From an uncultured virus (IMG/VR IMGVR_UViG_3300043568_000902) (lineage: Duplodnaviria > Heunggongvirae > Uroviricota > Caudoviricetes), in the IMG/VR virus record IMGVR_UViG_3300043568_000902: 60,685 nucleotides of DNA. One strand, 5' to 3'. The notes beneath the pieces were generated by a model. That model searched no databases and was not told the origin of the DNA. It saw only the letters and a list, made by a program, of their open reading frames with translations. Position 1 is the first letter of the stretch; each line of letters starts with the position of its first letter. Positions 6,001 to 55,365 of this stretch are shown here, piece by piece. The translations under genes and the position numbers were made by a program.

Positions 6001-6873
6001 TTACCAATGTATACAATGTTTACTACAGGATTTGCTACTAAAGGTGAGTATGCAATAGCTCAGATAATGCCAAACAAGAGACTTACCGGAGTATTAACTA
6101 ACATGTTAAACTACTTCGATAAGGAAAAGCTAATGACTTGGGATCTATTTAACAACTACTTCAAGAAGTTCGTTAATGTAAACGGCTTTAAGAATAGTGC
6201 TAATAGATATAAAATCAAAAACTATACTTTAGACCAACCTTTGTGGAAAGCGTCTAAGAATAAAAAAGCTGAATTATTTGGAGAGTATGGTAACATATCT
6301 ACAGGAAGAGATAACTTTGGTAAACCCGTTTATTCTTCAACATTTGAAGAATCAAATAAGTTATTAGAAGATATCACCACCCTTTTAAATAATAGAAGCA
6401 ACTATGCCTTTATTTTTAACGGGGCAACTAAAGCTTTGGGTATTCCAAAAAGTGGTTCCGATGGTGTATTAGCTGACCCAAATCTTGGAGCATCTAATGT
6501 ATTTGGTATTGCTGCAGCTAAAACATATCAAAAAGTACCATCTGCCCGCATGACGGATGACACATATGATGACAACGTAGAGGTTATAGAAAAATCTTTA
6601 AATGATCTTGAAGATTACTTGAAGTCTGAAAAGCTTAAACCTTTCTGGAATTCATATGGCTACGGTCAATATATGATTGGTGCAGATCAGTATGGTGAAA
6701 ATATAGATGCAACTAAAGCAAGAGCCCCTAAAACTTTTGTATATTTGTCTAAGAGGCTTTATGAAAAGTTTGGCTATGTTAATCCAAACTACAACATTAC
6801 AAAGGAAGGCCGATCTTTTGTGAAAGTAAGTACTAAAGATGTTATTCAAAAAATTAAAGAGTGTTTAAAATAA
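1..6873 (+). CDS. Virion-associated two-barrel RNA polymerase (crAss-like), 5'-truncated by the window
   Basis: Frame is open from base 1, so the Met at 232 is internal. Contains RIPVQGLNSM and the catalytic KSGGDFDIDKL (DxDxD at 3817-3831) typical of crAss-like virion RNAPs; >2290 aa. Confidence 0.9.
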   Translation, partial: RKSKFIEFGKRYDKVVTLFEDIEDPNFKKGREGYDRKGNEASLTELANEKVIYLIRSLHGINPDGSEVLNSLGFNSLMDFPMAWNRLAKTLDGANSVQEMYRRLDSSKEDYPFFQELLLKLGNPDTQMDAYSQSMWTSFLQAFGLSRVPLIAMVVDQSDIKEKDEDGKVSVVDVEFSAVVGGASVADKKVGRDWSDHFKTTTSRFIKQDVEGNNYLDVPELLSKYPNGVSKTDRWEFFKDIGLNFSNKDKIRQELNSLRHNPAITFFNRIIDLYNAYEEGRVEKPIIIRDIKDIVAERDYKNFDVVSLATDYNTLQSIEAKHSDDYSDFMVLNAAGDAQYEFMLNSTLTQMIKELNDAPSYNELISNPEMNHLSSDRNPWASINPKSNRKRLVTLYDMFDMAAPGGPKRALNPEYGSTEKVSIDINNMAGVSFTINGISNTGITAADADEVTKRLSDFHVSTLYGLPMGTTPADKSTILMYHLSNRKYYVNPKYFVSKEYSDRGNLDAYQIMLGYLEGELDRIYQVSNLDANSPEALVPVGKKKYGETGKEFVIFADMLSKPTKDALMAIPDEYKQNLRDYLDTEEGATLNRDIYRDIMKKYFPAKVAEFDSRLREAEYIDNNIHRKIRDLAGNRRLSKADTREAAVKAHVINSFIHNVETVLLYHGDPALYNMVKEDFQKRNAGINSTGTFPRIDSAMLNYINNVAFGKDTRGKDKVRYSNSSWYTGQPVKKVFTNQMRSAVLQDVDTQSLYLNILKEKLRESLLTSPAYKNKKLSASQINDIIDKKLEPYTEMKEGDGQGWITFDAYKALSIELDSWSDQQEVLYRKILNREYVSPSAIIEFFPVLKMQYWGPLANKGLPLTAFHKFSIAPLVPSTIENTDLEVLQNKLVEQGFEYALFSSGSKVSTITPDGVPDKFYKDASDAKNRDLAITEEDYKFTPNDIFLKYFKKQVEIAPTYKGKVIFSTQLRKLIETGLMEMGIPVDFKPEESYDQRKAKWNKVKAKWNSLSESQKLKTSNNYTKLVNFEKSLDKLMEKKKQDLLDEMGWSYDDKGVPTGPLDKLFNFIERQLTKQDIADHQLDFLQVTKSGKLKHSLDISLAAAQIEKVLISIVNKRLIKQKVLGEALIQVSGAGYTNREFFNENKDAPLETRLKVLGTNDLPFYTPGKAAKVKIALQGKFLNLLRLPEVNAMVRENLDKGEPLTHLQALNKLIKTDEWLNEGDNRAMVSMAAVRIPVQGLNSMEAFEVYEFLPEGGNQIILPAEIVAKSGGDFDIDKLTSFMPDIEVNENGDVVLKDTPENEVLRNMTDIITMPENFVDLITPNATDILSPLAKELASKVRPYDPLQNVFGERGDNISGTRIFEIEYNIYKHGSNNIGKKTLGQGAVDNTYNVIFNTVGAYLEPEYLAGNRTKFKRRQEIYLNHNTLDVNDEKAISLSNIYDADGVNKISEVISQLINGWVDIARDPWIFDIQGNNFVAPSLLLMIQAGVPIADAVYFASQPIVREYISQQKKARSAFANALGINLDNPNFYRSEARKTMLKNFPQTEELFSVNKKTGEEYIKPESMYTGMTEFAEPKRDEIFNLEYFKDNVTTPVSYNENELALLLHFMDIEDMSKVITSVKRTTNFDTATSSSLFQNAQRSANAEILASDGRMGKDIVSKILNESSISSFVVTDFMRDVYKNLFSVRDSKTMNDFILGKLARGINKDVEDTFDDIDMFVSQFRNDTLMFMFQNYVRNLDLDSVKTYKSAVVDSYAMSVRPTIESPIGVFVKEGVVKRKIKGVSKDVLRPVVYVDRARLAEEYGNLQSGQDLFTEDMPIAPVKKKMFQNIREYARFVMEREYLRFVLKPENVVTDSKFVEYANQFAEEGAYENESEQDFEDRVSVDAYEHTLRDMAFENTFNHYYMFKSKKNYAQRLADIKKTYPELEEAFPVLKFLSYDKSKKGEYIIKFRTSKIDVDRVNKFYEDITDLSNASTLHGILANVPSNEVNDIAKFFENLPMYTMFTTGFATKGEYAIAQIMPNKRLTGVLTNMLNYFDKEKLMTWDLFNNYFKKFVNVNGFKNSANRYKIKNYTLDQPLWKASKNKKAELFGEYGNISTGRDNFGKPVYSSTFEESNKLLEDITTLLNNRSNYAFIFNGATKALGIPKSGSDGVLADPNLGASNVFGIAAAKTYQKVPSARMTDDTYDDNVEVIEKSLNDLEDYLKSEKLKPFWNSYGYGQYMIGADQYGENIDATKARAPKTFVYLSKRLYEKFGYVNPNYNITKEGRSFVKVSTKDVIQKIKECLK

Positions 6874-6874
6874 G

Positions 6875-9800
6875 ATGAATATTTGCCCTAATCAAAATAG
6901 CAGAGAGTGGAAAAACCTTGAGAACTCAATAGGTAAAGTACACACCATGACTTATTGGATGTCAACTGGAGGTGAGTTAAAAGACGATCCTATTATGGTA
7001 CTCAATGAATTAGCTGAGTACTATCCAGAGAAAAAAGACGTATATGAGGCACTATCTTATAATTTACGTAGCCGCACTGAAAACCCGGAGACTATAAACT
7101 ACGTGCTTAAAACTGCGGCAACCCTGTTAACCGACAAGGCAGTCGAGGTATTTAAAAAGGGGACCAAAAACAATTGGCCTATAGATAAAATTCTTACTGA
7201 GTTGCAAATATCTAAAGAGCAAAAGCAATTAGTTAAAGACTCAGGTGCTACAGATATTGATGGCATACTAACGTACCTTACTAATAACTACTCATTTGGT
7301 GTAGAACTTAGAACTGCATATACTAATATAGATCCTAGGGGTTTACTTAGTGATGATGAGAATGATGCTATAATGGAGGAGCCTGTACCAACAAATGAAT
7401 ATGGTTACTTGTCGGTACCAGGTGGAATTAACTATCAAGAAGTTAGAGTTGTAGCTCCCAATATACTACCTAAAATAAAGGGTCATGCTGCATTTGCTAA
7501 AGACAATGATATAGGTTGGTTAAGGATAGATGATGAAAATCCTATAGGTACCTTAGAAGGAGAACCGTTAAAAGAAGATTTTGTTTTTAATTCTAATGGA
7601 AATTATATAAAAAAAGGTACTTCTATTAAAGATGGTTACATTAGCATATATGATAAGAATAATAATATTGAATATGAATTATATAATGTAGAATTTGATA
7701 CACACGATTATAACTATGCTAAATCTGATTTTGTAAGCCTCTACGGTAATAAAGCTTATCATAAAATAATAAAAGCATTAGCAAATTTTCAACAAGTAGA
7801 ACCCATAGGAAATAAAATACTTAGAGTTTTAGAACTACAATCAGATTTATTTCAAAAAGGGCGAGATGAAAGAGAGCTTGTAGACTATGAAGATGAAGAA
7901 TATGCTTTTACAAATAGGCAAAATTCAGAGTGGGTTGCTTTACGTGAAATTCAAGATTCAGATCCTTTAATGTATGAAGAAGGGATGGAAGAATTAAAAA
8001 AAGACATGGATGTTTTTTACACTAAGCAACATAGCAAAAATAAATTTTTACAACTTTTAAATAAAGATAATACCTGGATTACTGTTTTTGTTAAAGGTAT
8101 TATACAAGATGCCGCTAAAAAAGGTTATAATAAAATATTATTTCCATTAGGAGATACCGCTGCTAAAGTAGAAGGTCATGATACTTTAGAAAACTTTAAA
8201 AGAACTAAACAAAATCAAATTGATAGGATTAATAGAGAAATTGCAAATTATAAAGCTAATCCATCATATGCTATAGCTGAATGGAATGACAATATGGGTG
8301 TAGGTGAGAATCAAGTTACCTATTTTGCAGATGGTAGATATCTTTATTCTATAATAGATGGTGTTACTGAAGTAGAAGAAACCTTTGATGATCCCCGTTT
8401 TGCAGAAGATGCTGCAATTGTTAAAAATGAAGAGTCGCAAAAAGAAAAAGAAAGTCTAGAAAAAACTCCAGATAGTGTAAAATTAAAAGAAGTTATTGAA
8501 TCACTTGAAAGTGAAAAAGCTGTATATGAACAAGAGCTTGCAAGAGTAGAAGGACCAGAAGGTTTTGGTGCATTAAGACCTATATATAATTTTTATGAAA
8601 ATACAATAGCTAACATTCTTAAAAAGCAAGGTTATAACCCTACTCTTTATACAGATAATCATGGTAATAGCTGGAATGAAGTTAAGCTAAACAACCAAAG
8701 AGATACACAACCTATTCAGTTTAATAGTAGAATGACCCCTAACCAATTCCGTAAATTTTTAAATGAAAAGTACGGGCGTAAGGTGGGTAAGATGCACTTT
8801 ATTGATGGCGACAATAGCAACTATACAAATGTTAGGAATGCTATTGCTATGTATAACAATGAGCGTGGTGGTTTCTACGTAGAACTTTTGCCTACTAAAA
8901 CAAACACAGACTTCTATAAGCAATCGTATTTTATTAAAACATATAAAAACGGTAAGGGTTCTGCTAACCAACCCTCAGGCTTTACTATAGATAACTTTCT
9001 TGACGCAATAAATACAGTAGAAGCAGAAGAGTTTAAGCTAAGAGACTTAAACGCTGAAGCTGTAACTAATCTTCAATCTGGTAATATAAATGTTGGAGAA
9101 CTAGATAGAGCTCAAGCAAGTCAGCTTGTTGCTAAAATAGCTAAATCTATAGGACTAACTAATCAGGATGGTACAGCTGCGTTTAACGTTGTTACTCTTG
9201 AACAAGCTAAACTTATAACAGCTGGTGCCAAGAATGAGTTAGCAAATGCACCTGCGTTTGTCTACAACAATCAAGTGTATATTGTAGAGGGTAACCTTAC
9301 TTCAGAGAATATATTTCACGAGTTTTCACACCCATTTGTAAAAGCTTTACTAGCTTACAACCCTGCTTTATTTGATAACTTATACAACAAAGCATGGAAA
9401 GAGTTTAATGATTCTGCGTATGCTGATGTATTTAGGAAGGAGTATGACTACCTTGTTGAGGGCACGGATTCTTTTAAAGAAGAGGTTATAGTTAAGACTT
9501 TAACTAGATATGCTCAAATGAAATTAGCAAACATTCCTGTAAAGAAATCATTTGCTGATTTTGTTAATAACATCATGTATGGCATCAAGCAAATGCTTAA
9601 GGCATTGATTGGTAAAAAAGTTAATGTATCTGAGTTAAGTCCTACAACTTCATTAGCAGATCTTGCTAACAAGATGCTTACTGAAGAATTTGAAATTGAT
9701 AGCGCTATTGTTGGGCAAAAAGATTTTATTGATGCAAACCGCAGAATAAAACTAGAGCTTGATGAGTACATCGAGGTACTCAATGAGAAGATTGGTGATC

Positions 9801-12800
9801 CAAAAAACAATATATTACTTCAGCGTAATCTAGATAGATTCTTTAATGTTGTTAATACTCAAATACAAAAGCTCTTAAATGAGAAGAAGTATGCCGACTT
9901 AGCGGGATTGCTTGTAGACGAGTTTGATAGTAAGGACTTACAAAATATTAGATCTAATATTAGCAAGTATACAGATACAATTATTACAAAAGCAAAAGAG
10001 GTTATGGATGAAAACCTCCAAAACAAAAATAAAAGTATTGCTTTTGTAAATGGTTTACGCCGCCTAGAATATATCACAAATAAATTGCACAACGCAATTG
10101 AAACTAACATTGAGGATTTATCTAACATAGATAACCTGTACCGCGTTAAGTACTACAATGACTTCATAACGTCTTATGACAACTTCATGAAAGTACTTAG
10201 AAAGGATTTGTTAGCAATGAAGATTCCTACAAATTCTCCTATATTCGGATTGGTAAACACTATCAATGCTAATATTGATGCAGCTAGACTTGCTAGCCAT
10301 GATATTTACGGAGAAGGTCTATTAGATACATTCTGGGATATTGTAAAACCTACAGCAGACAAGATTGATGAACGCCATGAAAAGCGCATGGAGTATCTAA
10401 AGAGTAGAAATGCTCCAGAGAGAGTGCTTAAACTTGAGCAGGCTTCATACGATAGCATTAAATTATCTAAGGAATCATTTAAAAGTATCCTAGATGGTGA
10501 AATGGATGACGCCGGTATGCTTAATACATTACTAGAAGGGTATCTATATAACCAAGATCCTCTAGTAGGTTCGTTTGCTTTATATGTAAAGAAGAACTTT
10601 GTTGAAGTTCAGAATAATATTCAAATGAATAAGACTCGCTTTATGTCTGAAGTTGTTCCAGCTTTAGAGAAAGCAGGTTTTAATGCTTTTAACTTAACGT
10701 TAAACGCAGATAAGCTTTTACACTTAGACTATAAAGGAATTAAAGAAAATGGTGACCTTATTAAAACTCCAGTATGGACTTTATTAAGTCAGTTTAAAGA
10801 TTATAATTGGTGGTTAGCTGAGCAGAAATTTAAGATTGCAAAGCTTAATGATGAGTACTTAAGTGACCAAACTGACGAGAAAAAAGATATTTTAAACAAG
10901 GCTAAAGAAGATTTTGCTAGAGATCTTAAATTATATTTCCATCAGCAGTTTAAACCCGAGTACTATGATCGTGAAGAACTTTTTGAAAGGGATGCGGTTG
11001 GTAGAGAAGCAAAAAGATTACGTGATGAAATCTATGACGAGTTAGGTCAAATAGATGAATCAGTGCGTAATGGCTTTGAAGTTAAAGATGAAACTAAACG
11101 ACGTGAAGATGCATTGCGTAAACTACGTGAGCTTAGTAGTATCACCGATAGATTTGGTAAACTTAAACCTAAGTTTGAAAGGGACATTGCAGAGCGCTTA
11201 AAAGAATATAAAGAGTTAAGCCAAGACTTATTCACATGGCGTGAAAGAAGTGGTGTATTCCTTAATGATATTAAAGATTACGAAGACCAACTTATTCTTG
11301 AAGGCCTTGAAAGAACAGATGAAGAGTTTATTGATAAGCGTGAAAATTTCATTTTGAAAAATACACGTATTGCAATTAAACCTGAGTTCAACATATTTGT
11401 AGGTACTTTATATGAAAGATTAAAGGAGCTTGAAGAAAAGAAAAATGCTGTAAATAAAGATCGTATTGAAGCTTCTTTAAAAGCTAAGCTTGAAAAGAAA
11501 GGTGTATCTGATAATATCATTAGTCAAGTAACTACTGTATCAGATGTTTATAGTATTATTTCAGACTTGAGCTCTATATATAAGGATGAGGATAGACAAA
11601 CTGTGGCAGGCGATATGACCGCTAGTGCAATTGAAACTATTAAATCTTTAGAAGAAGTATTAGATGAAGTAAGATTAGAATCATACACTTATAGAAACTT
11701 AAGTGAAGAAGAGGCTGAATACTTAAGTGATTACTTTATCCGATTAAAAGAATTTGACTTAGGTATTATTGAAACAGAAGCTGAAAAAGGTACTCCTGAG
11801 TATGATGCTGAGATGGAAAAAATCAGCGATGAATTAACTGAAGAGTATAAGTATGTTCAAGAGTTAATTGAAAAGCAAAAGGATAACGGGCTTACTAAAA
11901 AAGAAAACACTGAGTACAATAAAATCTTAGCTGATCTTAAAGCACTTAGAAGTAAGAACCCTACCCAGTACTACCTAGATATATATAACAATTACCTTAC
12001 TACTATAGATACAGGGTTCATTGAAGATGAGCTTGATACAAATATTGTTGATTCCGAGAATGCAGATTCATTCTTAAGAGTAGATATAGTTGATGAAATT
12101 AAATCTCAAAACTCAGAGTTTGCAGAGTGGTTTGATAAAAACCATATACTAACTGAGAAGTATGATAAAGCTGAGGGTGAATATGTAGAGGGTTATAGAA
12201 GATTATCTGTATGGGAATATACGTTACCAAATGACCCAGAGTACTATGAGACTACGGAGATACCTTCTGCAGATGGCTCAGAAATAGTCACCATTATTGG
12301 TCAACCATCTCTTAAGTACTTTATGCGTGAGGTTAGACCAGAGTTTAAAACAACTAAAGTATTTGCGGGTGAGGTAGATGAAAACGGAAGACGCTTAACA
12401 CCAAACGTGGATAATAAAGGACACTGGTTACCAAAAACTGTAGCTCAAGGAGCTCCGGCAAATAGCCCATTCCTTAACCCAGAGTATGAGCGCTTGCGTA
12501 AAGATGACCCTAATGCATTTGAGGCACTAAATGTTTTAACAGATTACTACCTATCTATACAAGAGGGGGTTGAAGATGGTGTTAAATTATATCTTGAGAT
12601 TCCTCGCTTTACACCAGATAGTAAAGAAAACCTTGCTACTGTTGCAGCATCTGAAGATAGAAAAAATCTATTTAAAAGATGGTGGTATAACACAAAAGGT
12701 TTCTTTGTAAGAACTGCAGAGTCTGCGCAAGAAGATGGCTTAAACTGGCAAAACACTGAAGCAATACCAGATGAACTAGAATTCTTTGTAGATAAATCTA

Positions 12801-14581
12801 AGAGTATTCCAATTGAGGGTAAGTCTATGCTAAAAGCTGACTTGGTTTCTAAAGATATTCCTAGAAGTATGCTGCGCTATATGGCTTCTCTTGAGAAACA
12901 TAAAAAGCTTGTTGAAATAAGTCCTGTTGCAACAGCATTACAGGAGTATATGGTTGATCCTATTACTGGTAAAAACAAATCTATAGGGCAACTGCTTAAA
13001 GAAAAGCTTACTCTAAGACCTGGAAGTATCATTATTGATGGCGGAGACCGCGAAGATAAAGATAAAAAGAGACGCAATAGAGCACGTGGTATCAGAGAAG
13101 AAGCTATTAATGCATTAATTAATAAAGAATTCTATGGTCAAATCCACAATGATAAGTGGGGAGGTGATTCTGCATTCTTAAATAACTTCTCAGCCTTTTT
13201 ATCTAAGGCTGCGTCATTCTCATTCTTTGCTTTAGATATACCTAGTGCTTTAGTCAACTACTTTGATGCTAAGATTCAAAATAAAATTGAAGCATACGGT
13301 AGTAAGTACATGAACCCAATTACTTATAACATGGGTAATATTTGGGCAGGTAAAGCAATGACAATGATTAGCGCCGAAGTATACAGCACTGGCCCTAAAT
13401 CTACAACAGTTCAACTTGTAGAATTAATTGACCCAGGTCAAGACTTCCTAAAGAAATCAATAGATGATCCAATGAGTAGACATATATTAGGAGATTTAGC
13501 TAAGCTTAATTTCTTAATGAGTCCTCGTAAATGGTTAGAGTTTCAAGCATCACTTTCAATTATGGGAGGTATGATGCATCATCAAAATGTTGAACAAATA
13601 GTTGATGGCGAGCCAAGAAAAATACGCTATATTGATGCATGGGAAAAAGATGCTAGTGGTTATTTAAGACTAAAAGACGGTATAGATAAGAAGTGGGATC
13701 GTGATGGCGAGGCATTCAAAGACTTTAGAATTAAAGTTCAACAAGTTGTGAATAACGTCAATGGAGCATTTGCTGATTTTGACCAGCCACTTGCGTCTAA
13801 GTTCCTTATCTATAGACAAATTGCATTCTTACAAAAGCACTTTACCACAATGTTCATGAACCACTTTGCATTTAGAGGTGGCTTTAGATCTCTATTTGGT
13901 AAAACAGGCGGTCTTGAAAGATATGATTGGGGTACACAAGATGTAGGCATGGGTTACTTTATTAGAACTCTTAACTATCTTCTTAACGGATTTAGAACTC
14001 TAGGTCAAAGCTACATATACATGTCTAAGGAAGAAGCATATGCAATCTTTAAAACATTGCGTTGGATGGCATCATTGTATATCACAAGCTTGATTAAATC
14101 AATGTTCTTTGGCTATGATGATGAAGACAAAGATCGCTTTAAGAAAATGTATAAAAGAAGTGGACCTCTTCCTATATTTGGTGCTAAGTATAACACCGGT
14201 TATAAAAGAGCAGCTAAATTTAATCCGCAAGGTTGGGTTATGAATAACTTATTGTATGTTGCAATTAGAGCTCAAGATGATACAGAAGAGTGGATGCCAC
14301 TACCAGGATTTGGTATTGGTAACTATACCGATATGATGTCATTAAAAGGTGGAGCTATGATGAAACCTACATTAAGTGCATATGCCGAAATTCTTACAGG
14401 ATTAACTGGCTTAATTATGGGTGATGAAGATATTTACTATAAGCAAGAATCAGGTGCATACCCTTGGTTAAAAGAAGGTAAGCCTAAGTTCTTGAAACCA
14501 TTAGCTGGTACAGTAGGTATTACCGCAGGTACTACTGACCCAGGTGCTAAGATTGAAGTTTTTGAAGGATATGATAAATAA
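6875..14581 (+). CDS. Giant virion/ejection protein with zincin-like HExxH domain
   Basis: 2568 aa directly after the vRNAP. HEFSH at 9317-9331 with downstream EE; helical coiled-coil body. Position matches crAss-like co-ejected proteins. Confidence 0.7.
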   Translation: MNICPNQNSREWKNLENSIGKVHTMTYWMSTGGELKDDPIMVLNELAEYYPEKKDVYEALSYNLRSRTENPETINYVLKTAATLLTDKAVEVFKKGTKNNWPIDKILTELQISKEQKQLVKDSGATDIDGILTYLTNNYSFGVELRTAYTNIDPRGLLSDDENDAIMEEPVPTNEYGYLSVPGGINYQEVRVVAPNILPKIKGHAAFAKDNDIGWLRIDDENPIGTLEGEPLKEDFVFNSNGNYIKKGTSIKDGYISIYDKNNNIEYELYNVEFDTHDYNYAKSDFVSLYGNKAYHKIIKALANFQQVEPIGNKILRVLELQSDLFQKGRDERELVDYEDEEYAFTNRQNSEWVALREIQDSDPLMYEEGMEELKKDMDVFYTKQHSKNKFLQLLNKDNTWITVFVKGIIQDAAKKGYNKILFPLGDTAAKVEGHDTLENFKRTKQNQIDRINREIANYKANPSYAIAEWNDNMGVGENQVTYFADGRYLYSIIDGVTEVEETFDDPRFAEDAAIVKNEESQKEKESLEKTPDSVKLKEVIESLESEKAVYEQELARVEGPEGFGALRPIYNFYENTIANILKKQGYNPTLYTDNHGNSWNEVKLNNQRDTQPIQFNSRMTPNQFRKFLNEKYGRKVGKMHFIDGDNSNYTNVRNAIAMYNNERGGFYVELLPTKTNTDFYKQSYFIKTYKNGKGSANQPSGFTIDNFLDAINTVEAEEFKLRDLNAEAVTNLQSGNINVGELDRAQASQLVAKIAKSIGLTNQDGTAAFNVVTLEQAKLITAGAKNELANAPAFVYNNQVYIVEGNLTSENIFHEFSHPFVKALLAYNPALFDNLYNKAWKEFNDSAYADVFRKEYDYLVEGTDSFKEEVIVKTLTRYAQMKLANIPVKKSFADFVNNIMYGIKQMLKALIGKKVNVSELSPTTSLADLANKMLTEEFEIDSAIVGQKDFIDANRRIKLELDEYIEVLNEKIGDPKNNILLQRNLDRFFNVVNTQIQKLLNEKKYADLAGLLVDEFDSKDLQNIRSNISKYTDTIITKAKEVMDENLQNKNKSIAFVNGLRRLEYITNKLHNAIETNIEDLSNIDNLYRVKYYNDFITSYDNFMKVLRKDLLAMKIPTNSPIFGLVNTINANIDAARLASHDIYGEGLLDTFWDIVKPTADKIDERHEKRMEYLKSRNAPERVLKLEQASYDSIKLSKESFKSILDGEMDDAGMLNTLLEGYLYNQDPLVGSFALYVKKNFVEVQNNIQMNKTRFMSEVVPALEKAGFNAFNLTLNADKLLHLDYKGIKENGDLIKTPVWTLLSQFKDYNWWLAEQKFKIAKLNDEYLSDQTDEKKDILNKAKEDFARDLKLYFHQQFKPEYYDREELFERDAVGREAKRLRDEIYDELGQIDESVRNGFEVKDETKRREDALRKLRELSSITDRFGKLKPKFERDIAERLKEYKELSQDLFTWRERSGVFLNDIKDYEDQLILEGLERTDEEFIDKRENFILKNTRIAIKPEFNIFVGTLYERLKELEEKKNAVNKDRIEASLKAKLEKKGVSDNIISQVTTVSDVYSIISDLSSIYKDEDRQTVAGDMTASAIETIKSLEEVLDEVRLESYTYRNLSEEEAEYLSDYFIRLKEFDLGIIETEAEKGTPEYDAEMEKISDELTEEYKYVQELIEKQKDNGLTKKENTEYNKILADLKALRSKNPTQYYLDIYNNYLTTIDTGFIEDELDTNIVDSENADSFLRVDIVDEIKSQNSEFAEWFDKNHILTEKYDKAEGEYVEGYRRLSVWEYTLPNDPEYYETTEIPSADGSEIVTIIGQPSLKYFMREVRPEFKTTKVFAGEVDENGRRLTPNVDNKGHWLPKTVAQGAPANSPFLNPEYERLRKDDPNAFEALNVLTDYYLSIQEGVEDGVKLYLEIPRFTPDSKENLATVAASEDRKNLFKRWWYNTKGFFVRTAESAQEDGLNWQNTEAIPDELEFFVDKSKSIPIEGKSMLKADLVSKDIPRSMLRYMASLEKHKKLVEISPVATALQEYMVDPITGKNKSIGQLLKEKLTLRPGSIIIDGGDREDKDKKRRNRARGIREEAINALINKEFYGQIHNDKWGGDSAFLNNFSAFLSKAASFSFFALDIPSALVNYFDAKIQNKIEAYGSKYMNPITYNMGNIWAGKAMTMISAEVYSTGPKSTTVQLVELIDPGQDFLKKSIDDPMSRHILGDLAKLNFLMSPRKWLEFQASLSIMGGMMHHQNVEQIVDGEPRKIRYIDAWEKDASGYLRLKDGIDKKWDRDGEAFKDFRIKVQQVVNNVNGAFADFDQPLASKFLIYRQIAFLQKHFTTMFMNHFAFRGGFRSLFGKTGGLERYDWGTQDVGMGYFIRTLNYLLNGFRTLGQSYIYMSKEEAYAIFKTLRWMASLYITSLIKSMFFGYDDEDKDRFKKMYKRSGPLPIFGAKYNTGYKRAAKFNPQGWVMNNLLYVAIRAQDDTEEWMPLPGFGIGNYTDMMSLKGGAMMKPTLSAYAEILTGLTGLIMGDEDIYYKQESGAYPWLKEGKPKFLKPLAGTVGITAGTTDPGAKIEVFEGYDK

Positions 14582-14599
14582 TTTTATTATCTTATATAT

Positions 14600-15145
14600 A
14601 TGAAACAATACACTTACAAAGAACTAGAAGCAAAATTTGTTGAACTAGGTTACCAATGGCCAACTCTTCACTTGGTGGGAGTAAGATCTGCCGCTAATGA
14701 GAAGAACAAGTTTGATGATACCATGTATCTTGTAAACGGTCTTATCATGAGTCCTTACAGTTGCACTACTAATCCTGGTACACACTGGTTAAAGAACTTG
14801 CTTAATCCTAAAGGAGCAGCATTACTTAAACCAGGACAGTATGTTGATGCTTACCAATTAGGATTACACCAAGGTAAGTATGAAGCGTTAGTACAACGTA
14901 AACCTGTAACTGTATACCGTGATGGTGACAAGGATGATGTAGCTGAAGAGACCTCTACAGAACAAACAGGTTTATTTGGTATTAACATTCACCGTGCTAA
15001 TCCTAATGCTGTATCTAGCATTATAGATAAGTGGTCAGCAGGATGTCAAGTACTTAATGATCCTAAGCAATATGCTACATTGATTGCAGCTTGTAAAGCA
15101 TCAGGTAAGAAGGCATTTACTTATACCCTATTAAGAGAGTTCTAG
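14600..15145 (+). CDS. Putative endolysin, L,D-transpeptidase (YkuD)-like Cys/His fold
   Basis: GINIHRA...WSAGCQV (H...SxGC) motif; upstream of holin- and spanin-like genes. Confidence 0.65.
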   Translation: MKQYTYKELEAKFVELGYQWPTLHLVGVRSAANEKNKFDDTMYLVNGLIMSPYSCTTNPGTHWLKNLLNPKGAALLKPGQYVDAYQLGLHQGKYEALVQRKPVTVYRDGDKDDVAEETSTEQTGLFGINIHRANPNAVSSIIDKWSAGCQVLNDPKQYATLIAACKASGKKAFTYTLLREF

Positions 15146-15897
15146 TGAAAAACTTATCAAAAGAAGAGCTGCTCAGTAGATTAGAAGCAATTAACAGAAG
15201 TAACGCTATTATCTACTTTGATCTCAATGGATACATCCTAGGGGTGAATCCTATATTCTTAAAAGCAATGGGCTTTCAAGAAAATGAGCATGCTCAACTA
15301 ATTGGTAAGCATCATAGCATTTTTGTAGACTATAACTATTCAAAATCTGAGGAGTATAAAAAGTTCTGGGACACACTAAGAGAGGGTAAGTTTTTTGAAG
15401 GAGAGTTTGAAAGAAAAAAAATAGACGGGGCTCCCATTTACTTACAAGCTACATACAATCCTATTTTAGATGAAAGCGGTACTATAACTAAAATAATGAA
15501 GATTGCTACTGACATTACACCTATGGTAAATAGTAAAAATACAGTAGATGCTCTTTCAAAAGATTTGCAGATTGAGTTAAAAAAATCACAGGATCTTAAA
15601 AATTCAATAGAGATAGAAAAGGATGCAGCTTTGAATGACTTGGATATAGTAATGAAGAAAAGTCAAAGTGAGTTAATAAAAGTCATTGTTAAAGTTGCGT
15701 TGTCCGTTATAGTAGGAGTTGGGGTTATTACAACAATACTATATTGGATGGCAATAGTTATGAGCAAAGACACACAAATAATTGGTTCAACTTGGAGTAA
15801 TATGTTTAGTGTCTTATTAACAAATGCCTTTTCAATAGTTGGAACTATTATGGGAATCAAGTATGCTACTCAAGAAGGGAGTAAAGAAAAAAAATAA
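15145..15897 (+). CDS. PAS-domain + coiled-coil + 2-TM membrane protein
   Basis: N-terminal PAS/PAC resembling cytoplasmic chemoreceptor PAS repeats (IIYFDLNG..N..FL..MG..LIGKHHSIF..YKKFW..L..G..GEFER..G..IYLQATYNPI.D..G...KIATDIT). Two hydrophobic C-terminal helices. GTG start overlaps the endolysin TAG. Confidence 0.85.
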   Translation: MKNLSKEELLSRLEAINRSNAIIYFDLNGYILGVNPIFLKAMGFQENEHAQLIGKHHSIFVDYNYSKSEEYKKFWDTLREGKFFEGEFERKKIDGAPIYLQATYNPILDESGTITKIMKIATDITPMVNSKNTVDALSKDLQIELKKSQDLKNSIEIEKDAALNDLDIVMKKSQSELIKVIVKVALSVIVGVGVITTILYWMAIVMSKDTQIIGSTWSNMFSVLLTNAFSIVGTIMGIKYATQEGSKEKK

Positions 15898-15916
15898 TAA
15901 ATAAAAATATAATAAA

Positions 15917-16228
15917 ATGAAAGAGTTTTTCTATGACCTATTTAGCAATAAGTCTTCTCTCTCAAGTAAGAGAGTCTTATCTGCACTTACATTATTAAAT
16001 ATTATTATCTTAGCATACGTTGCTACTTTCCGTAATGATGATCATATCACACCGGAGTTTATGTTTGACGCTCTATGTCTAATAGCAGGCGGAGGACTAG
16101 GCTTAACGGTTATTGAGAAGATCTTTGATAAAAAGAAAGAAGTACCAGTACCAGCTCCAGTACAACCGGCTCCTGAGCCACAACCTGAGATTACTTATGA
16201 CACAGCGCCAACTGAAGAAACTGTATAG
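15917..16228 (+). CDS. Putative holin (2 TM, SSKR motif)
   Basis: 103 aa, two hydrophobic segments, SSKR before TM1, charged Pro-rich tail; lies in the lysis cassette. Confidence 0.6.
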   Translation: MKEFFYDLFSNKSSLSSKRVLSALTLLNIIILAYVATFRNDDHITPEFMFDALCLIAGGGLGLTVIEKIFDKKKEVPVPAPVQPAPEPQPEITYDTAPTEETV

Positions 16229-16562
16229 TGATATAGCTGTAGCAGTAACCTTAGTAACAATTGTAGCCTTTATCGCAATATTGCAATATAAGAATAAGGT
16301 AAAAGATCTTAAGATAGAAGACCTTAAGCGTCAAGCTTATGCCGATGATGTAAGAGATAGTATCTTAGTAGATTCTTTAAAGCTAAAGATTCTCCAAGAT
16401 AGCTTGGCAATTGTTGATATTCAACGAGTTAACTATATAAACACTATAAATCAACAAGATGACAAAGACAAAGGTAATCGGGATATTCTTATTGCTGCTA
16501 TCCCTAACGCAGATGATGAACAGCGTGACCATATATGGGCAGCTTACTCCCCAAAGAATTAA
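16197..16562 (+). CDS. Putative i-spanin-like membrane protein
   Basis: ATG at 16197 (MTQRQL...), N-terminal TM followed by coiled coil; overlaps the next gene. Confidence 0.45.
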   Translation: MTQRQLKKLYSDIAVAVTLVTIVAFIAILQYKNKVKDLKIEDLKRQAYADDVRDSILVDSLKLKILQDSLAIVDIQRVNYINTINQQDDKDKGNRDILIAAIPNADDEQRDHIWAAYSPKN

Positions 16563-16923
16563 GTACAATGACACCAAAGGTATCTTCTTCACAGATAAAC
16601 AAGAGGAGATCTTGCTTAAATCTATTGTGGACTATGACTACTTGCAGAAAAGCATTGCAGGTAAAGACAAGATTATTAAGACCCAAGAACTCCGCATTCT
16701 TGATAAGGAGTTTGAGATCAAAAAGATGGCTGGATACCTGGATGCAGCAAACCAAAGAACAACAGAGTGCCTTGATAGAAACTTTGTTTTACAATCAAAC
16801 CTGGTAGAAACCAGGGATTCCCTACATATATCGCAAGGTAATCTTGGTGTGGCTAAAAGAAATAATTGGATATTCGGAGGAATCTCCGTATTTTTATTAA
16901 GTATACTTATTATAACAAACTAA
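16459..16923 (+). CDS. Putative spanin-like protein (signal peptide, coiled coil, C-terminal TM)
   Basis: Hydrophobic N- and C-termini; overlaps the previous gene in another frame; no lipobox Cys seen. Confidence 0.45.
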   Translation: MTKTKVIGIFLLLLSLTQMMNSVTIYGQLTPQRIKYNDTKGIFFTDKQEEILLKSIVDYDYLQKSIAGKDKIIKTQELRILDKEFEIKKMAGYLDAANQRTTECLDRNFVLQSNLVETRDSLHISQGNLGVAKRNNWIFGGISVFLLSILIITN

Positions 16924-16935
16924 AACATATATAAA

Positions 16936-17103
16936 ATGGCAACAAACAATTACATGCCTCAAGGGCGTACTCCACGTAGTGGCGGAGCAGGTGTAAACAC
17001 TTACAAAAAAGGCGGTATTGCCAAAATTGCAGGTGTTATGTCTAAAGGTGGTAGCAAACCTAAAGTTACTATGAGAAAAGGTGGTATGAAAAAAGGATGT
17101 TGA
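16936..17103 (+). CDS. Small basic Gly/Lys-rich protein with KGG repeats (55 aa)
   Basis: Manually translated: MATNNYMPQGRTPRSGGAGVNTYKKGGIAKIAGVMSKGGSKPKVTMRKGGMKKGC; A-rich leader. Confidence 0.65.
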   Translation: MATNNYMPQGRTPRSGGAGVNTYKKGGIAKIAGVMSKGGSKPKVTMRKGGMKKGC

Positions 17104-17249
17104 TGAACAACGATTATCAATTTCTTAAAGCTCAAGTAAAAGCATTTCATCCACAATGGTCAGATGAGCAAATAGATGCTGAATGCAAAAAAATATTAGC
17201 CGGTAACAGCGAAGATGCTGATGACGGCTGCTTATACTGTGGATCTTAG
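17103..17249 (+). CDS. 48-aa protein ending in acidic CxxCGS
   Basis: Manually translated: MNNDYQFLKAQVKAFHPQWSDEQIDAECKKILAGNSEDADDGCLYCGS; TGATG coupling to the previous ORF. Confidence 0.65.
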   Translation: MNNDYQFLKAQVKAFHPQWSDEQIDAECKKILAGNSEDADDGCLYCGS

Positions 17250-17274
17250 TAATTAACAATTAAAAAATAAAACA

Positions 17275-17496
17275 ATGGACAAATCAAAGAGAGTAGCAAA
17301 CAAAATTAACCGTTTATCTGAGCGTAGAGAAAAAAATGCTAATATAATATTAGATAATTCTGGCAGCGGCAAGAACCAAGGCAGAGCAATGAAAAGGTTT
17401 GATAAGCTTGATGCTAAAATCAGTAAACTTGCTGAAAAGAATAAGATTAGCTCACCTACTATGAAAAGAGGTGGTCAAATGAAAAAGAAAAAGTAA
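17275..17496 (+). CDS. Small basic protein
   Basis: 73 aa, Lys/Arg-rich, ends MKRGGQMKKKK. Confidence 0.6.
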   Translation: MDKSKRVANKINRLSERREKNANIILDNSGSGKNQGRAMKRFDKLDAKISKLAEKNKISSPTMKRGGQMKKKK

Positions 17497-17807
17497 TGGC
17501 AAAAAATCTTAAAAAATATCAAACTCCAGGTTCTGTGGTTCTGTCACCACCAAAAAGAACTAGAACAGTAGTTGTATCACCTGATGGTGAGTATAGAACT
17601 ACAAGTAAAACTAAAAATACTGCTAATTCTTATAGTGAATCATCAAAAACTAGACGTACTGCTAAAGGTTTTTTAAAAGGGGCTGAAAAGGTTAACATGA
17701 TGCAACCTCCAATTAGCAGCCCTGAACCTTCTTCTCCTAGACCTATTACAGCAATGGATCAGGTAGATAGAATAGAAAAAGCAAAACTTGGTAAAATTAA
17801 AAAATAA
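17496..17807 (+). CDS. Basic low-complexity protein
   Basis: 103 aa, TAATG coupling. Confidence 0.6.
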   Translation: MAKNLKKYQTPGSVVLSPPKRTRTVVVSPDGEYRTTSKTKNTANSYSESSKTRRTAKGFLKGAEKVNMMQPPISSPEPSSPRPITAMDQVDRIEKAKLGKIKK

Positions 17808-18085
17808 TGGTACTAGATATAGAAACAGTTAAAGTAATTCAGTCGTTAGTAACTGAGTTAAATACAACAGCTACATTTCTTACTAAACTAAAAGAAAGTA
17901 AAGAAATTTCTTTTACTGTTGGTGGTATTACTACTAGAATACTAGCTAGAGATGAGGAAGCATTTAAACCTATCTTTGAAGCTATTTTAGAAAGTAATAA
18001 TAAAAAAATGTTTGGTCTTAGAGATAGAATTGCAAACCTGTTAGACTTTGATAAATTTGAAGAAGCAGCAAAAAGAGAATTATAA
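17807..18085 (+). CDS. Hypothetical protein
   Basis: 92 aa, TAATG coupling. Confidence 0.6.
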   Translation: MVLDIETVKVIQSLVTELNTTATFLTKLKESKEISFTVGGITTRILARDEEAFKPIFEAILESNNKKMFGLRDRIANLLDFDKFEEAAKREL

Positions 18086-18087
18086 TT

Positions 18088-18225
18088 ATGGCAAAATTAG
18101 CAACTGTAAAAAGCAATTCCCCTAAGCGTACTAAAGTTAGCCGCCCAGGGGTTATTGCAAAAACTAAAACTAGTAGATTAAAATCTAGTAAGAACTATAA
18201 GAAAGCTTATAGAGGTCAGGGTTAA
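18088..18225 (+). CDS. Small basic protein ending KKAYRGQG (45 aa)
   Basis: Manually translated; YRGQG C-termini recur in small phage proteins; last gene before the strand switch. Confidence 0.6.
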   Translation: MAKLATVKSNSPKRTKVSRPGVIAKTKTSRLKSSKNYKKAYRGQG

Positions 18226-53954: not shown

Positions 53955-54341
53955 TTAAAGGTCAGCTACATCCTTCTTCTCAACCTTCTTGGCTCCAGTT
54001 GCAGCACCTCTGCTACCCCCAGCTACCATCTTCGCAGCAAGCTTATCGGCTAAGCTTTGCCCGAAATTACCACCGTATTGCTCTGCTAAAGCAACCTGCA
54101 TATCCATCTCTGTTGTGTCAGGGATGATACGCCCGTCCTGCGTGGTTAAACTTGGACAACTCTCCCCTACATAACGTGTAGAGAAGAACAACGGAGCACC
54201 ATTGTCATCTTCTACAAGATAACTACCGGCTTGCTCGCGGTATTGGTCAAGCTCCTCGGCTTTACCTTTCACGGTGTATACAAACACCAACTTGCCAGTT
54301 TCTTTTTTGCGGTACTGGCGCACCTTCTCAAACTTTGCCAT
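53955..54341 (-). CDS. Early protein, paralog of 54790-55209
   Basis: Shared FVY.V.G..E.LD.Y...G......NG.PL.F..R..GESC and QVALAEQYGGNFGQSLAD+LA.K. Confidence 0.8.
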   Translation of the reverse strand: MAKFEKVRQYRKKETGKLVFVYTVKGKAEELDQYREQAGSYLVEDDNGAPLFFSTRYVGESCPSLTTQDGRIIPDTTEMDMQVALAEQYGGNFGQSLADKLAAKMVAGGSRGAATGAKKVEKKDVADL

Positions 54342-54416
54342 AGGCTTTAATTGATTGGTTTTTAATTAGTTAACATTACCTTAGCTCCATTACCCCATAT
54401 GACTACGGGAAATAAT

Positions 54417-54508
54417 CGAGCGTAGCGAAGATTATGGGTATATAGAAATTAACGAGCGAAGCGAGTAAGCGGAGCGAAGCGGAGCTAAAAAAAGCGAGCG
54501 AAGCGAGC
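54417..54508 (+). repeat. Cluster of GAGCG(A/T)AGCG mini-hairpin repeats
   Basis: CGAGCGTAGCGA, CGAGCGAAGCGAG, GCGGAGCGAAGCGGAGC, GCGAGCGAAGCGAGC; more copies at 55276-55290, 55302-55316 and ~56384-56399. Confidence 0.85.
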
Positions 54509-54630
54509 TAAGAATAAGATATGGGTATATAGGAATCCAAGGGTAAAAACTTTACAACTTAATGATAATGAGCGTGTTGGTCACGCGGCCCCGTGGGAAA
54601 ACATCCATACTAGGATTCCAAGAATGCGTG

Positions 54631-54660
54631 CATCCGTGTACATCCGTGTACATACGTGTA
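54631..54660. repeat. 10-bp tandem repeat x3
   Basis: CATCCGTGTA CATCCGTGTA CATACGTGTA. Confidence 0.85.
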
Positions 54661-54789
54661 TACTTGCTTCCTATATATATGTACACACTCACAATAGCAT
54701 CCTAGTGCTATAGCAAAAAGGGTATATAGAACTTAAACGAAGTTTAAAACCCACGAGTGTGAACTCGTGGGTGTAGGTGCAGGTCCTGC

Positions 54790-55209: not shown

Positions 55210-55232
55210 AAAATTTGAAATTAGATTTTCAA

Positions 55233-55273: not shown

Positions 55274-55365
55274 CCGCGAGCGAAGCGAGCACAACGCACG
55301 CGCGAGCGCAGCGAGCAGCCGTTGCTTGCGCAAAGGAAGAGCCGAAGCTCTTCCGCGCAAAGACT

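Follow-up and report, generated by a model that had tools for sequence, protein, structure and literature searches.

A PAS Sensor Joined to a Membrane Hairpin as a Candidate Lysis-Timing Module of Uncultured Phages

The DNA examined here, referred to as the window, is a stretch of 60,685 nucleotides from an uncultured virus of the Caudoviricetes (IMG/VR IMGVR_UViG_3300043568_000902). Between an endolysin-like and a holin-like gene it contains a 250-codon open reading frame (15145–15897, plus strand, as are all features described below) for a protein in which a cytoplasmic PAS domain is followed by a long helix and a hairpin of two transmembrane (TM) segments. We consider it reasonably probable, if far from certain, that this PAS-hairpin protein is a sensor-controlled accessory module of lysis timing. 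Throughout its family the hairpin is the constant output, and the inputs are interchangeable: PAS, PAS-PAS, GAF, or a phage kinase acting through a receiver on a small docking domain. The hairpin constitutes an undescribed protein family that is almost only viral, and our literature search returned no description of the PAS-hairpin family. Lysis timing largely sets phage fitness, and in the phages studied it follows from the holin's own clock, from dual-start antiholins or, in T4, from the sensing of superinfection. If our reading is true, the module adds a new layer of control by which lysis becomes conditional on an intracellular host signal, received through sensor domains or through a kinase–receiver pair that the phage itself encodes.

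The PAS-hairpin gene is among the last of the block of late, rightward-transcribed genes, at its end. Its GTG start codon at 15145 overlaps the TAG stop codon of the upstream endolysin-like gene in a TAGTG sequence (15143–15147), and a gene for a two-TM protein follows at 15917–16228, both as described in an earlier sequence-only reading of this DNA. Relatives of the protein occur in 292 of 314 candidate viral stretches, with 67–85% identity between stretches although their neighborhoods are otherwise non-homologous. The ratio pN/pS ranges from 0.06 to 0.28, with synonymous sites near saturation (pS 0.61–0.87). Because of this distribution and the low pN/pS at near-saturated pS, the reading frame is not a chance one.

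An AlphaFold2 model of the 250-residue protein (mean pLDDT 76.5) begins with an N-cap (residues 1–20; 15145–15204) that is modeled as a helix at residues 6–19. The PAS core (residues 21–125; 15205–15519), recognized by Pfam and Foldseek and modeled at residues 21–123, ends with a D-I-T motif. It is followed by a linker helix (residues 126–183; 15520–15693), probably a coiled coil, that runs without interruption into TM1 (residues 184–206; 15694–15762; mean hydropathy 2.3), so that in the model a single unbroken helix of 81 residues (125–205) joins the PAS domain to the membrane. A short outer loop (residues 207–213; 15763–15783; modeled at 206–210) leads to TM2 (residues 214–238; 15784–15858; second model helix 211–247), and the protein ends in a cytoplasmic tail (residues 239–250; 15859–15897 with the stop codon). 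The two hydrophobic stretches of the protein are residues 184–206 and 214–238. The tail, 54% conserved, had been called basic; it is indeed charged, but with four lysines and two glutamates it is mildly basic at most.

Tested against the curated Pfam cut-offs for PF13426, PF00989, PF08447 and PF08448, the N-terminal half is a PAS domain. The best profile is PAS_9 (residues 22–125; E = 5.6e-11; 43.1 bits, cut-off 27), and PAS (34.4 bits, cut-off 22.6), PAS_3 (34.4, 25.6) and PAS_4 (30.4, 23.1) also score above threshold. The modeled strands (21–25, 30–34, 84–91, 97–108 and 114–123) and accompanying helices form a PAS fold. Foldseek counted 500 or more structural matches with E ≤ 0.001, and those listed are PAS or LOV structures with a probability of 1.00. 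In the same protein Pfam finds PAS families alone at E ≤ 0.1, with no kinase, HAMP or MCP signaling domain, which bears out the original description of a complete PAS domain lacking a kinase or MCP output. Soluble chemoreceptors often carry a PAS domain of this type at their N-terminus; the PAS-hairpin protein differs from methyl-accepting chemotaxis proteins in having no MCP signaling domain and none of the HAMP domains that usually go with it. The MCP label attached to 371-residue relatives was rejected as annotation carried over from the PAS part.

The earlier remark that PAS domains of this type often bind flavin or haem agrees, as regards flavin, with both sequence and fold. The nearest solved PAS sequences are the FAD-PAS of MmoS (E = 2e-9) and the PAS of Aer (1.8e-3), and flavin-binding domains (LOV, NifL, MmoS, Aer) predominate among the Foldseek matches listed. 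His57, which follows a G-x motif, and Trp75 in the Fα helix align with residues common to MmoS and Aer. The picture at the flavin-contact positions is mixed: in the alignments, histidine stands in place of the LOV cysteine, Arg90 in place of asparagine, and alanine in place of the Iβ Gln/Arg, positions which we take to have the corresponding roles in the aligned PAS domains. MmoS, NifL and Aer (PDB 3ewk, 2gj3, 8dik) are thus the closest PAS domains by sequence and among the top fold matches listed, but their aligned Asn and Arg are Arg and Ala here, and their signaling partners are an MCP, NifA or a kinase. The window PAS is closest to the flavin-binding structural class, with flavin as a putative cofactor. 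A redox or energy signal would be only one possible input, since some flavin contacts are kept and others replaced, and since GAF domains or a kinase and receiver take the place of PAS as input in some relatives. LOV photochemistry is not expected because the position of the photo-cysteine holds histidine.

The linker carries a signature of register. From the D-I-T motif to a juxtamembrane glutamine it measures 49 residues in 180 proteins located by motif search. The same length occurs in 13 more proteins in which the motif reads D-I-S and the search expression had taken an earlier match (three of the 13 were checked directly, and one aligns gap-free with the window's twin). One diverged relative has a linker of 42 residues, and both 42 and 49 are multiples of seven. 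In relatives that lack the PAS domain, the linker is 50, 57, 64, 71, 78, 85, 92 or 99 residues long in 117 of 122 distinct sequences; these account for 8 of 12 distinct lengths falling into one class modulo 7, which has a chance probability of about 3.5e-4. These seven-residue steps therefore point to a signaling coiled coil that keeps its register and, together with the unbroken helix of the AlphaFold2 model, they agree with the proposed path from sensor through coiled coil to membrane output. In YF1, the D-I-T motif reportedly has a signaling role and function is said to depend on the heptad length of the linker. Short LOV proteins and LOV-kinase chimeras of this type (PDB 7a6p, 7r5n, 8a3u, 4gcz, found by Foldseek) share with the PAS-hairpin protein the N-cap, the PAS core and the D-I-T passage into a long C-terminal helix. 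Here the output is a membrane hairpin rather than a kinase or a free helix, and the photo-cysteine position is histidine.

We infer that the PAS-hairpin protein would form a parallel dimer in which a change in the PAS domain travels along the coiled coil as a shift of helix register. Such a shift would reorient the two hairpin helices within the inner membrane, and permeabilization would come at a different time. The opposite direction, in which membrane state (potential or the triggering of the holin) is sensed by the hairpin and the cytoplasmic domain serves as output, would be accommodated by the same rigid helix, which could carry a signal either way. This reverse scheme appears very improbable: PAS and GAF domains typically serve as inputs, the three-gene form of the system described below ends at a receiver lacking an output domain so that the hairpin protein is its obvious target, and in the one-piece form nothing but the hairpin could be the output.

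Purifying selection is strongest at the N-cap (pN/pS 0.058; columns on average 95% identical in 80 loci) and at TM2 (pN/pS 0.069; pS 0.65), and no part of the protein varies more than TM1 (pN/pS 0.28). Residues 211–242, comprising TM2, are at least 97% identical across the 80 loci, and W217, T226, F229, I231, T234 and G237 are invariant in every input class. This segment is amphipathic and rich in Ser, Thr, Asn and Gly with a G-x-x-x-G motif; its mean hydropathy is 1.05, and its hydrophobic moment is 0.94 versus 0.53 in TM1.

The two-TM topology seen in the sequence-only reading and taken there as holin-like is confirmed, but kinship with holins is not. The hairpin has no match in Pfam, and against PHROGs it gives only weak matches, none to a holin family (in the window, phrog_27934 at 0.023 and phrog_1544 at 0.051). 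Eight of 30 family members match phrog_1544, the best at 6e-4; neither of these PHROGs has an assigned function. Profile comparison by hhalign gave probabilities of 0.9% and 0.1% for a relation to the two neighboring holin families, h85-type and holin_4_1-type, respectively. A class II holin is a small protein with two TM segments, N-in/C-in, and a charged C-terminal tail; the present protein shares the two TM helices and the tail, which is short, but has 250 residues and a cytoplasmic sensor and linker of about 180 residues.

The gene is linked to lysis genes well beyond the window. In 45 of 80 PAS-hairpin loci, which are not independent and include many near-duplicates, a gene of an endolysin family lies at most one gene away, and in 71 of 80 at most three genes away. 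These endolysins belong to four mutually unrelated families (Peptidase_M15_3, GH19, Phage_lysozyme and phrog_3000), so that the lysis-cassette membership read from the window alone holds across all four. A holin-like gene lies within four genes in 54 of the 80 loci, and 44 neighbor genes within the same distance belong to the "h85/h103" family represented in the window. In nine of the 80 loci the nearest four genes on either side include no member of an endolysin family, which counts against the lysis-timing reading; of these nine, L056–L058 and L061 adjoin a 5′-3′ exonuclease and DnaB, and L065 lies among unknowns.

These exceptions touch on a second alternative, namely that the protein has a membrane function unrelated to lysis and simply rides in the late or lysis region, for example in superinfection exclusion, in host takeover, or in host defense or energy sensing that acts on a host membrane protein. 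Accessory genes are often carried in lysis regions, five of the 80 loci have no lysis neighbor, with four of them in a context of replication genes, and the invariance of TM2 would suit a conserved host target. Against this stand the proximity, in 71 of 80 loci, to endolysins of four unrelated families, the linkage to lysis genes in all input designs including a kinase/receiver/hairpin unit between two endolysins, and, in the window, translational coupling with the endolysin-like gene. We regard a non-lysis function as unlikely.

Relatives of the window's endolysin type show that the PAS-hairpin gene is optional: it is absent from 78 of 80 such loci and present in two. Where it is absent, the endolysin gene usually abuts the holin-like gene; among the 20 closest relatives, 16 have the two genes side by side. 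Because the gene is optional, and because the closest relatives retain endolysin and holin-like gene in its absence, the PAS-hairpin protein is very probably not the main holin. The earlier proposal of a "sensor-gated holin or antiholin" thus survives as a sensor in the lysis cassette with a membrane output, and finds no support as far as the main holin is concerned. That the protein might still be the phage's own hole-forming holin with a regulatory PAS head is suggested by its two TM helices and charged tail beside an endolysin, with which it overlaps in the window as adjacency to the endolysin would lead one to expect of a holin, and by 26 of 80 loci with no other recognized holin-like gene within four genes. 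We give this idea very little credence: the 78 loci that lack the PAS-hairpin gene keep a small two-TM gene, no holin family matches, the conservation is far above that usual for holins, and the window contains a separate holin-like gene.

The inputs attached to the hairpin point to a modular device. We found the hairpin in 101 representative proteins, C-terminal in those of full length, and a domain scan of 66 of them (the 35 shortest were left out) identified PAS, PAS-PAS and GAF domains as fused inputs. A few representatives carry odd fusions to hairpin-like ends (a TsaD fragment, SOUL, GT2, an Rpb1 fragment), which may be chimeras of assembly or gene calling. PAS-less versions, whose existence had been posed as a check, were found as a class in which the hairpin follows an N-terminal domain of about 70 residues. 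Among 80 loci of this class, a kinase with PAS and HATPase_c domains is encoded in 71 and a protein with a Response_reg receiver in 76; the gene order kinase, receiver, hairpin occurs in 53. These relatives thus have the kinase and receiver genes of a two-component phosphorelay beside the hairpin gene, whereas the window's one-piece gene has neither a kinase nor a receiver nearby. The PAS domain of the kinase is 40% identical to that of the window (E = 5e-25). Lysis genes lie within six genes in 55 of the 80 PAS-less loci; the other 25 kinase/receiver/hairpin loci, many of them short contigs, have no recognized lysis gene within that distance. In one locus the order is GH19, kinase, receiver, hairpin, M15. 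All three GAF-hairpin loci adjoin a holin-like gene or GH19.

A 97-residue protein (P0157) had been a candidate for a stand-alone hairpin and was rejected. Of 58 viral loci with relatives of this protein, 51 encode PAS-less forms of 224–225 residues and one encodes a PAS-PAS form of 371 residues; the remaining six are short reading frames, four of which run off the end of a contig and two of which are fragmentary weak matches. In this sample of 58 loci, a stand-alone small hairpin protein was never found.

How the hairpin might act on lysis can be approached through two known systems. In phage T4 (PMC11413866), the antiholin RI detects superinfection from the periplasmic side and attaches to the holin T by the latter's periplasmic domain; it is an accessory lysis protein with a sensing part that adjusts holin firing and is dispensable for lysis. 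The PAS-hairpin protein is likewise an accessory, dispensable member of its cassette, as an antiholin would be, judging from its presence and absence among relatives and its position. It differs in having a cytoplasmic PAS sensor with a coiled coil leading to a two-TM hairpin; it has no sequence relation to RI, and holin binding is hypothetical. The second system is the pinholin S21 68 of phage 21, described in PMC9025707 as a small protein with a SAR endolysin as partner and a TM2 of glycine-zipper type, for which depolarization is the trigger of lysis. Like S21 68 and its antagonist form, the hairpin would have two TM segments in an N-in/C-in arrangement and a TM2 rich in small residues, here G-x-x-x-G with a Ser/Thr ladder. 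Unlike S21 68, it carries a cytoplasmic sensor of 180 residues and has no homology to the pinholin; any pore is putative. The endolysins also differ: in a crude hydropathy test (19-residue window, hydropathy ≥ 1.5), none of 76 neighboring endolysin-family proteins has a hydrophobic segment of the kind that would mark the SAR endolysin of a pinholin.

An antiholin analogous to RI would be a brake, with the hairpin binding the phage holin in the membrane and blocking its oligomerization until the PAS signal arrives. The gene lies directly 5′ of the holin-like gene, it is optional in the manner of accessory timing regulators, its modeled N-in/C-in topology would be shared with many holins and antagonists, and known antiholins form complexes with holins according to PMC11413866 and PMC9025707. 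Yet the hairpin is nearly invariant beside holin-like genes of different families (h85-type, holin_4_1, or none recognized), to which it is unrelated by the hhalign comparisons given above. Identical TM1 segments occur beside holins of both the h85 and the holin_4_1 type and next to endolysins that may be M15, GH19 or GH24 (TM2 being nearly invariant across all loci in this comparison), and the hairpin does not covary with holin type. On this evidence we judge a brake rather unlikely. Since identical hairpins adjoin holins and endolysins of different families, the target is more likely to be a general one, such as another copy of the hairpin, the membrane or some conserved component of the host, than the phage's own holin.

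For the sensor-controlled timing module, the direction we tentatively favor is that the hairpin advances lysis as a trigger. The polar TM2, rich in small residues, would self-assemble into a small depolarizing lesion that fires the phage's canonical holin, whatever its type. Counting against such a trigger, a small depolarizing lesion alone could not release the neighboring endolysins, because all 76 lack a hydrophobic segment. Taken to its widest, the scheme would describe modular phage signaling in uncultured aquatic bacteria whose output is a membrane hairpin in place of transcription, with PAS, GAF or two-component input gating a self-assembling depolarizing hairpin via a heptad-registered coiled coil and directly setting the moment of lysis. 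This speculative picture, which we hold as possible and no better, would provide the first virus to time lysis post-translationally by an intracellular host signal (redox or energy state, a small ligand, perhaps a nucleotide messenger). If true, the protein would also be a compact natural coiled-coil switch of a membrane output, relevant to transmembrane signaling and to the construction of switchable lysis devices for laboratory strains.

The hairpin family is found essentially only in viral sequence. Its nearest clusters in a language-model atlas are 100% viral and all unnamed, with scores of 0.77–0.89, below the tool's mark of 0.9. A search of one genome from each of 185,579 species returned eight loci, all on contigs of metagenome-assembled genomes (MAGs); because these carry labels of six different phyla, they do not give a reliable host. 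The DNA of positions 14000–17500 has no match in cultured phages. In 50,697 GenBank phage records the window protein matches three, through the PAS part alone, and the PAS-less form matches none. In RNA libraries, four runs from two studies hold 0.05–0.15 of the sampled words, contigs span 190–221-nt pieces of the PAS-hairpin gene (two with zero differences), and a 523-nt contig of a relative (31 differences) extends from the last 81 nt of the gene into the holin-like gene; these matches are not proof of transcription.

The neighboring genes complete a plausible cassette. The endolysin-like gene (14600–15145) encodes 181 residues with a YkuD or L,D-transpeptidase-like fold, as judged by its AlphaFold2 model and Foldseek. 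In PHROG searches the protein hits phrog_3000 (1.7e-33) and aligns with the C-terminal part of phrog_33083, "endolysin" (2e-13); it has no match in Pfam and no hydrophobic segment. Its AlphaFold2 model (pLDDT 86.2) retrieves PDB entries that, among the matches listed, are almost all enzymes of the L,D-transpeptidase fold at weak E values (7e-3 to 0.09), and 24 sequences all share H131, S146, G148 and C149. The 103-residue product of the holin-like gene has two hydrophobic segments and a charged tail, no family in Pfam or PHROG searches, and is a candidate for the primary holin. A complex prediction of this protein with residues 150–250 of the PAS-hairpin protein, run with no controls, scored 0.00 and weighs neither way on binding. 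Scans for consensus promoters and terminators around the cassette returned nothing that alters the interpretation. Downstream, an i-spanin-like reading frame (16197–16562), so named from its anatomy of an N-terminal TM segment and a coiled coil, had been listed from a TTG at 16113, and more likely begins with the ATG at 16197. It overlaps a gene (16459–16923) for a 154-residue protein that is hydrophobic at its N-terminus, bears a TM segment near its C-terminus, has no lipobox cysteine and no Pfam or PHROG family match, and is possibly a partner in envelope disruption. Both reading frames are conserved in relatives, where the i-spanin-like frame overlaps the next gene as well.

The 250-residue product of the PAS gene (window 15145–15897, + strand) had been described from sequence as a PAS domain, a coiled coil and two transmembrane helices with a basic tail, devoid of a kinase or MCP output domain. 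This anatomy was confirmed. The sole domain reported by Pfam is PAS_9 at residues 22–125 (E = 5.6e-11, above cut-off), and no kinase, HAMP or MCP domain was found by the same search; classification as an MCP was rejected on this ground. The AlphaFold2 model, for which an alignment of 34 rows was used (pLDDT 76.5), contains an N-cap helix (residues 6–19), the PAS core (21–123), one continuous helix (125–205), a five-residue loop and a second helix (211–247). The first transmembrane segment (TM1, residues 184–206) is plainly hydrophobic. The second (TM2, residues 214–238) is amphipathic, with a mean hydropathy of 1.05 and a moment of 0.94; about half of its surface consists of Ser, Thr, Asn and Gly, and a G-x-x-x-G motif is present. 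The tail is indeed basic, though just mildly so. We refer to the C-terminal unit of TM1, loop and TM2 as the hairpin.

The window is a segment of a phage genome, and its lysis cassette is directly preceded by two giant plus-strand ORFs (window 1–14581) of at least 2213 residues, open at the window start, and of 2568 residues. Both lack a PHROG match and probably encode virion or tail-associated proteins. A compact run of small plus-strand genes comes after them, beginning with a 181-residue endolysin-like gene (14600–15145), the stop codon of which overlaps the GTG start of the PAS gene in a TAGTG at 15143–15147, so that the coupling read from the sequence stands. Further downstream lie a two-transmembrane gene of 103 residues (15917–16228), an ORF with an N-terminal transmembrane segment and a coiled coil (likely start 16197, end 16562) and, overlapping this ORF, a 154-residue gene with hydrophobic N- and C-termini, the latter a transmembrane segment (16459–16923). 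The overlapping pair is kept in relatives and recalls spanin gene pairs; its second ORF has no lipobox cysteine. The 103-residue protein is a member of a diverse family whose proteins have 75–103 residues, two transmembrane segments and a charged tail. The 181-residue protein has no Pfam match; among the PHROGs it is similar to phrog_3000 and to the C-terminal portion of an "endolysin" family with two domains. Structure matches of its model (pLDDT 86.2) are weak (E = 7e-3 to 0.09) and almost all are YkuD-type L,D-transpeptidases or L,D-carboxypeptidases, and 24 relatives all keep a His and an S-x-G-C motif. There is moderate support for reading it as an endolysin of the peptidoglycan L,D-peptidase type. 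With relatives encoded by 589 of 598 candidate viral stretches, it may represent an under-described endolysin class.

Using this protein as the query, we kept 80 loci of the 589 stretches with relatives. A hairpin protein is encoded in two of them, L105 and the near-twin of the window, L081. In the 20 closest relatives (L082–L101) the order is giant gene, endolysin, holin-like gene and two overlapping genes, and in 16 of these the holin-like gene starts no more than a few bases from the endolysin stop. Since these relatives keep both the endolysin and the holin-like gene, the PAS gene is optional, an insertion into an otherwise complete cassette. This completeness argues against the possibility that the PAS gene product is the main holin.

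Of 314 candidate stretches drawn from a collection of viral contigs, 292 encode a relative of the PAS-hairpin protein. We kept the best 80 of these, with one PAS domain in L001–L050 and L073 (which starts at its contig edge, so that its form is uncertain) and two in the other 29. The best protein-collection matches are also two-PAS forms (367–375 residues, 69–75% identity), which one source labels "methyl-accepting chemotaxis protein". On the viral contigs of L051–L055, the PAS-PAS-hairpin gene is separated by a few genes from one for a TonB-dependent-receptor-like outer-membrane protein of 749 residues (Plug + OMP_b-brl_3). The near-twin of the window (L001/L081) encodes a 100% identical PAS-hairpin protein, flanked by endolysin, holin-like and downstream proteins that are 91–95% identical. 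Other window genes are shared by L001, L070 and L078 only among the best 80 of 292 loci; the PAS-hairpin protein is therefore 67–85% identical across otherwise unrelated contexts.

For these 80 loci we called genes, clustered four neighbours per side and annotated 44 cluster representatives. The commonest neighbour is a two-transmembrane family of about 85 residues that includes the 103-residue window gene (44 genes; h85-type), followed by endolysins of the Peptidase_M15_3 (35), GH19 (26) and Phage_lysozyme (12) families and by Phage_holin_4_1 (10). The synteny with lysis genes put forward for checking in the sequence-only reading was observed: an endolysin-family gene lies at most one gene away in 45 and at most three genes away in 71 of the best 80 loci. 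No such gene was found within four genes in the remaining nine. Among these, L028 is cut by the contig end, L025, L060 and L068 adjoin a small two-transmembrane gene, L056–L058 and L061 adjoin a 5'-3' exonuclease and DnaB, and L065 lies among unknowns. Because many loci are near-duplicates, the independent observations are fewer than these counts imply; the robust point is that the linkage extends to four unrelated endolysin families. We regard a function unrelated to lysis as quite improbable.

A search of the full database with residues 127–250 (E ≤ 1e-3) matched 101 representative proteins, and in the full-length ones the match is C-terminal. Pfam scans of 66 of the 101 identified PAS in four proteins, GAF in one and apparent odd fragments in a few, while 54 proteins had no domain. 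Most of the unannotated representatives have an N-domain of about 70 residues that falls outside known families, then a coiled coil, which varies in length, and the hairpin. PAS-less versions, another point raised for checking, thus exist, and we examined 80 viral loci of this class. A PAS+HATPase_c kinase of about 410 residues is encoded in 71 of these and a receiver-domain protein of about 145 residues in 76; the gene order is kinase, receiver, hairpin in 53, and an endolysin or holin-like gene is at most six genes away in 55. The window PAS is 40% identical to the kinase PAS (E = 5e-25). L161–L240, L316 and L338 carry, next to lysis genes, a three-gene unit in which a histidine kinase with PAS or GAF is joined by a receiver of one domain and by the small N-domain/coiled-coil/hairpin protein. 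In three loci there is a full-length GAF-hairpin gene, which in each case adjoins a small two-transmembrane gene or a GH19 endolysin, and one locus has the order GH19, GAF-kinase, receiver, hairpin, M15. Inputs are exchangeable on a constant hairpin.

The hairpin has no holin match in Pfam or PHROG, and membership in these holin families was rejected; eight of 30 family members weakly match phrog_1544 (unknown function). Profile comparison with the two holin families found nearby showed no similarity, and the sample checked contained no stand-alone hairpin protein. The hairpin is very rare in cellular genomes, where 185,579 species (one genome each) gave eight loci, every one on a MAG contig and with phylum labels that are scattered, and it is absent from 50,697 GenBank phage records. 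The family is real, strongly conserved and almost confined to viral sequence.

The linker helix varies in steps of seven. In PAS-less proteins the stretch between a basic N-domain motif and a juxtamembrane Q motif measures 50, 57, 64, 71, 78, 85, 92 or 99 residues in 117 of 122 distinct sequences. One class modulo 7 thereby holds eight of the 12 distinct lengths (chance about 3.5e-4), and the four others may be motif mis-hits. For PAS forms, measured from a D-I-T junction to the same Q in 194 of 204 sequences, the linker is 49 residues in 180. The same length was found in 13 more PAS forms with the motif D-I-S (three of three inspected sequences read D-I-S, and one aligned gap-free to the near-twin of the window), and one relative, 43% identical, has a linker of 42. 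A length change by whole heptads is what a continuous coiled coil requires to keep input and output in phase. This pattern suggests that the hairpin is a regulated effector rather than a mere anchor.

Selection was measured over 33 non-redundant genes, in which synonymous sites are near saturation (pS 0.61–0.87). Purifying selection is strong on the loop and TM2 (pN/pS 0.069) and on the N-cap (0.058), compared with 0.20–0.28 in the PAS core, coil and TM1. Residues 211–242 are marked as at least 97% identical in the best 80 of 292 loci, and six TM2 residues are invariant across every input class. Since the inner half of TM2 is conserved on all faces, the helix appears to be packed against protein on every side.

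Among solved sequences, the window PAS comes closest to the FAD-binding PAS domain of MmoS (2e-9), the PAS domain of Aer (1.8e-3) and a LOV domain. Flavin-binding PAS domains predominate among the Foldseek matches listed, which include short LOV proteins and LOV-kinase chimeras with the same N-cap, PAS and long-helix layout. His57 and Trp75 align with residues common to MmoS and Aer, and an Arg is found where LOV, MmoS and Aer all have Asn. The window PAS has His at the LOV cysteine position and Ala at the Iβ position.

How might such a protein act? It would form a parallel dimer, relay the signal by helix register and alter the timing of membrane permeabilisation. Identical TM1 segments (TM2 being near-invariant everywhere) occur beside both holin_4_1-type and h85-type holins, and beside M15, GH19 or GH24 endolysins. 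Specific binding between transmembrane helices of this protein and of the holin of each phage is hard to reconcile with this distribution, and an antiholin that acts as a brake in this way seems unlikely. The target would rather be generic, such as the membrane potential, a host protein that is conserved, or the hairpin. We lean toward a trigger. Collapse of the proton motive force goes with triggering by holins and pinholins both (PMC9025707). A small gated lesion that depolarises the membrane could therefore work in one cassette as in another. A hydropathy test of 76 neighbouring endolysins found no hydrophobic segment in any; a pinholin/SAR pair was rejected accordingly, and the lesion would have to act through the canonical holin, not by freeing the enzyme. 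We put forward this gated lesion as a tentative possibility.

In working logic the PAS-hairpin protein resembles T4 RI, an accessory lysis-timing regulator (PMC11413866), and possibly the pinholins; its architecture resembles LOV/YF1-type PAS-coiled-coil signalling proteins. Literature outside subscription journals yielded no sensor-domain holin or antiholin and no phage two-component system acting on lysis. The sensor-gated lysis timing proposed in the sequence-only reading is plausible but only partly supported; anatomy and lysis linkage agree with it, and a holin-family match is lacking. We favour the view that the PAS-hairpin protein is an accessory lysis-timing regulator, with a membrane module not previously described at its core.

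The lysis block is followed at 16936–18225 by small, very basic, Gly/Lys-rich ORFs of 55, 73, 103 and 45 residues; the 55-residue ORF, the one scanned, has no family match. From about 18.2 kb onward, the minus strand encodes a replication module with DNA polymerase, exonuclease, primase and helicases, and with a MazG-like pyrophosphohydrolase. The whole window contains no tRNA genes. Its G+C content is about 0.35 but reaches 0.449 at 54001–56000, near which the GC skew also switches sign.
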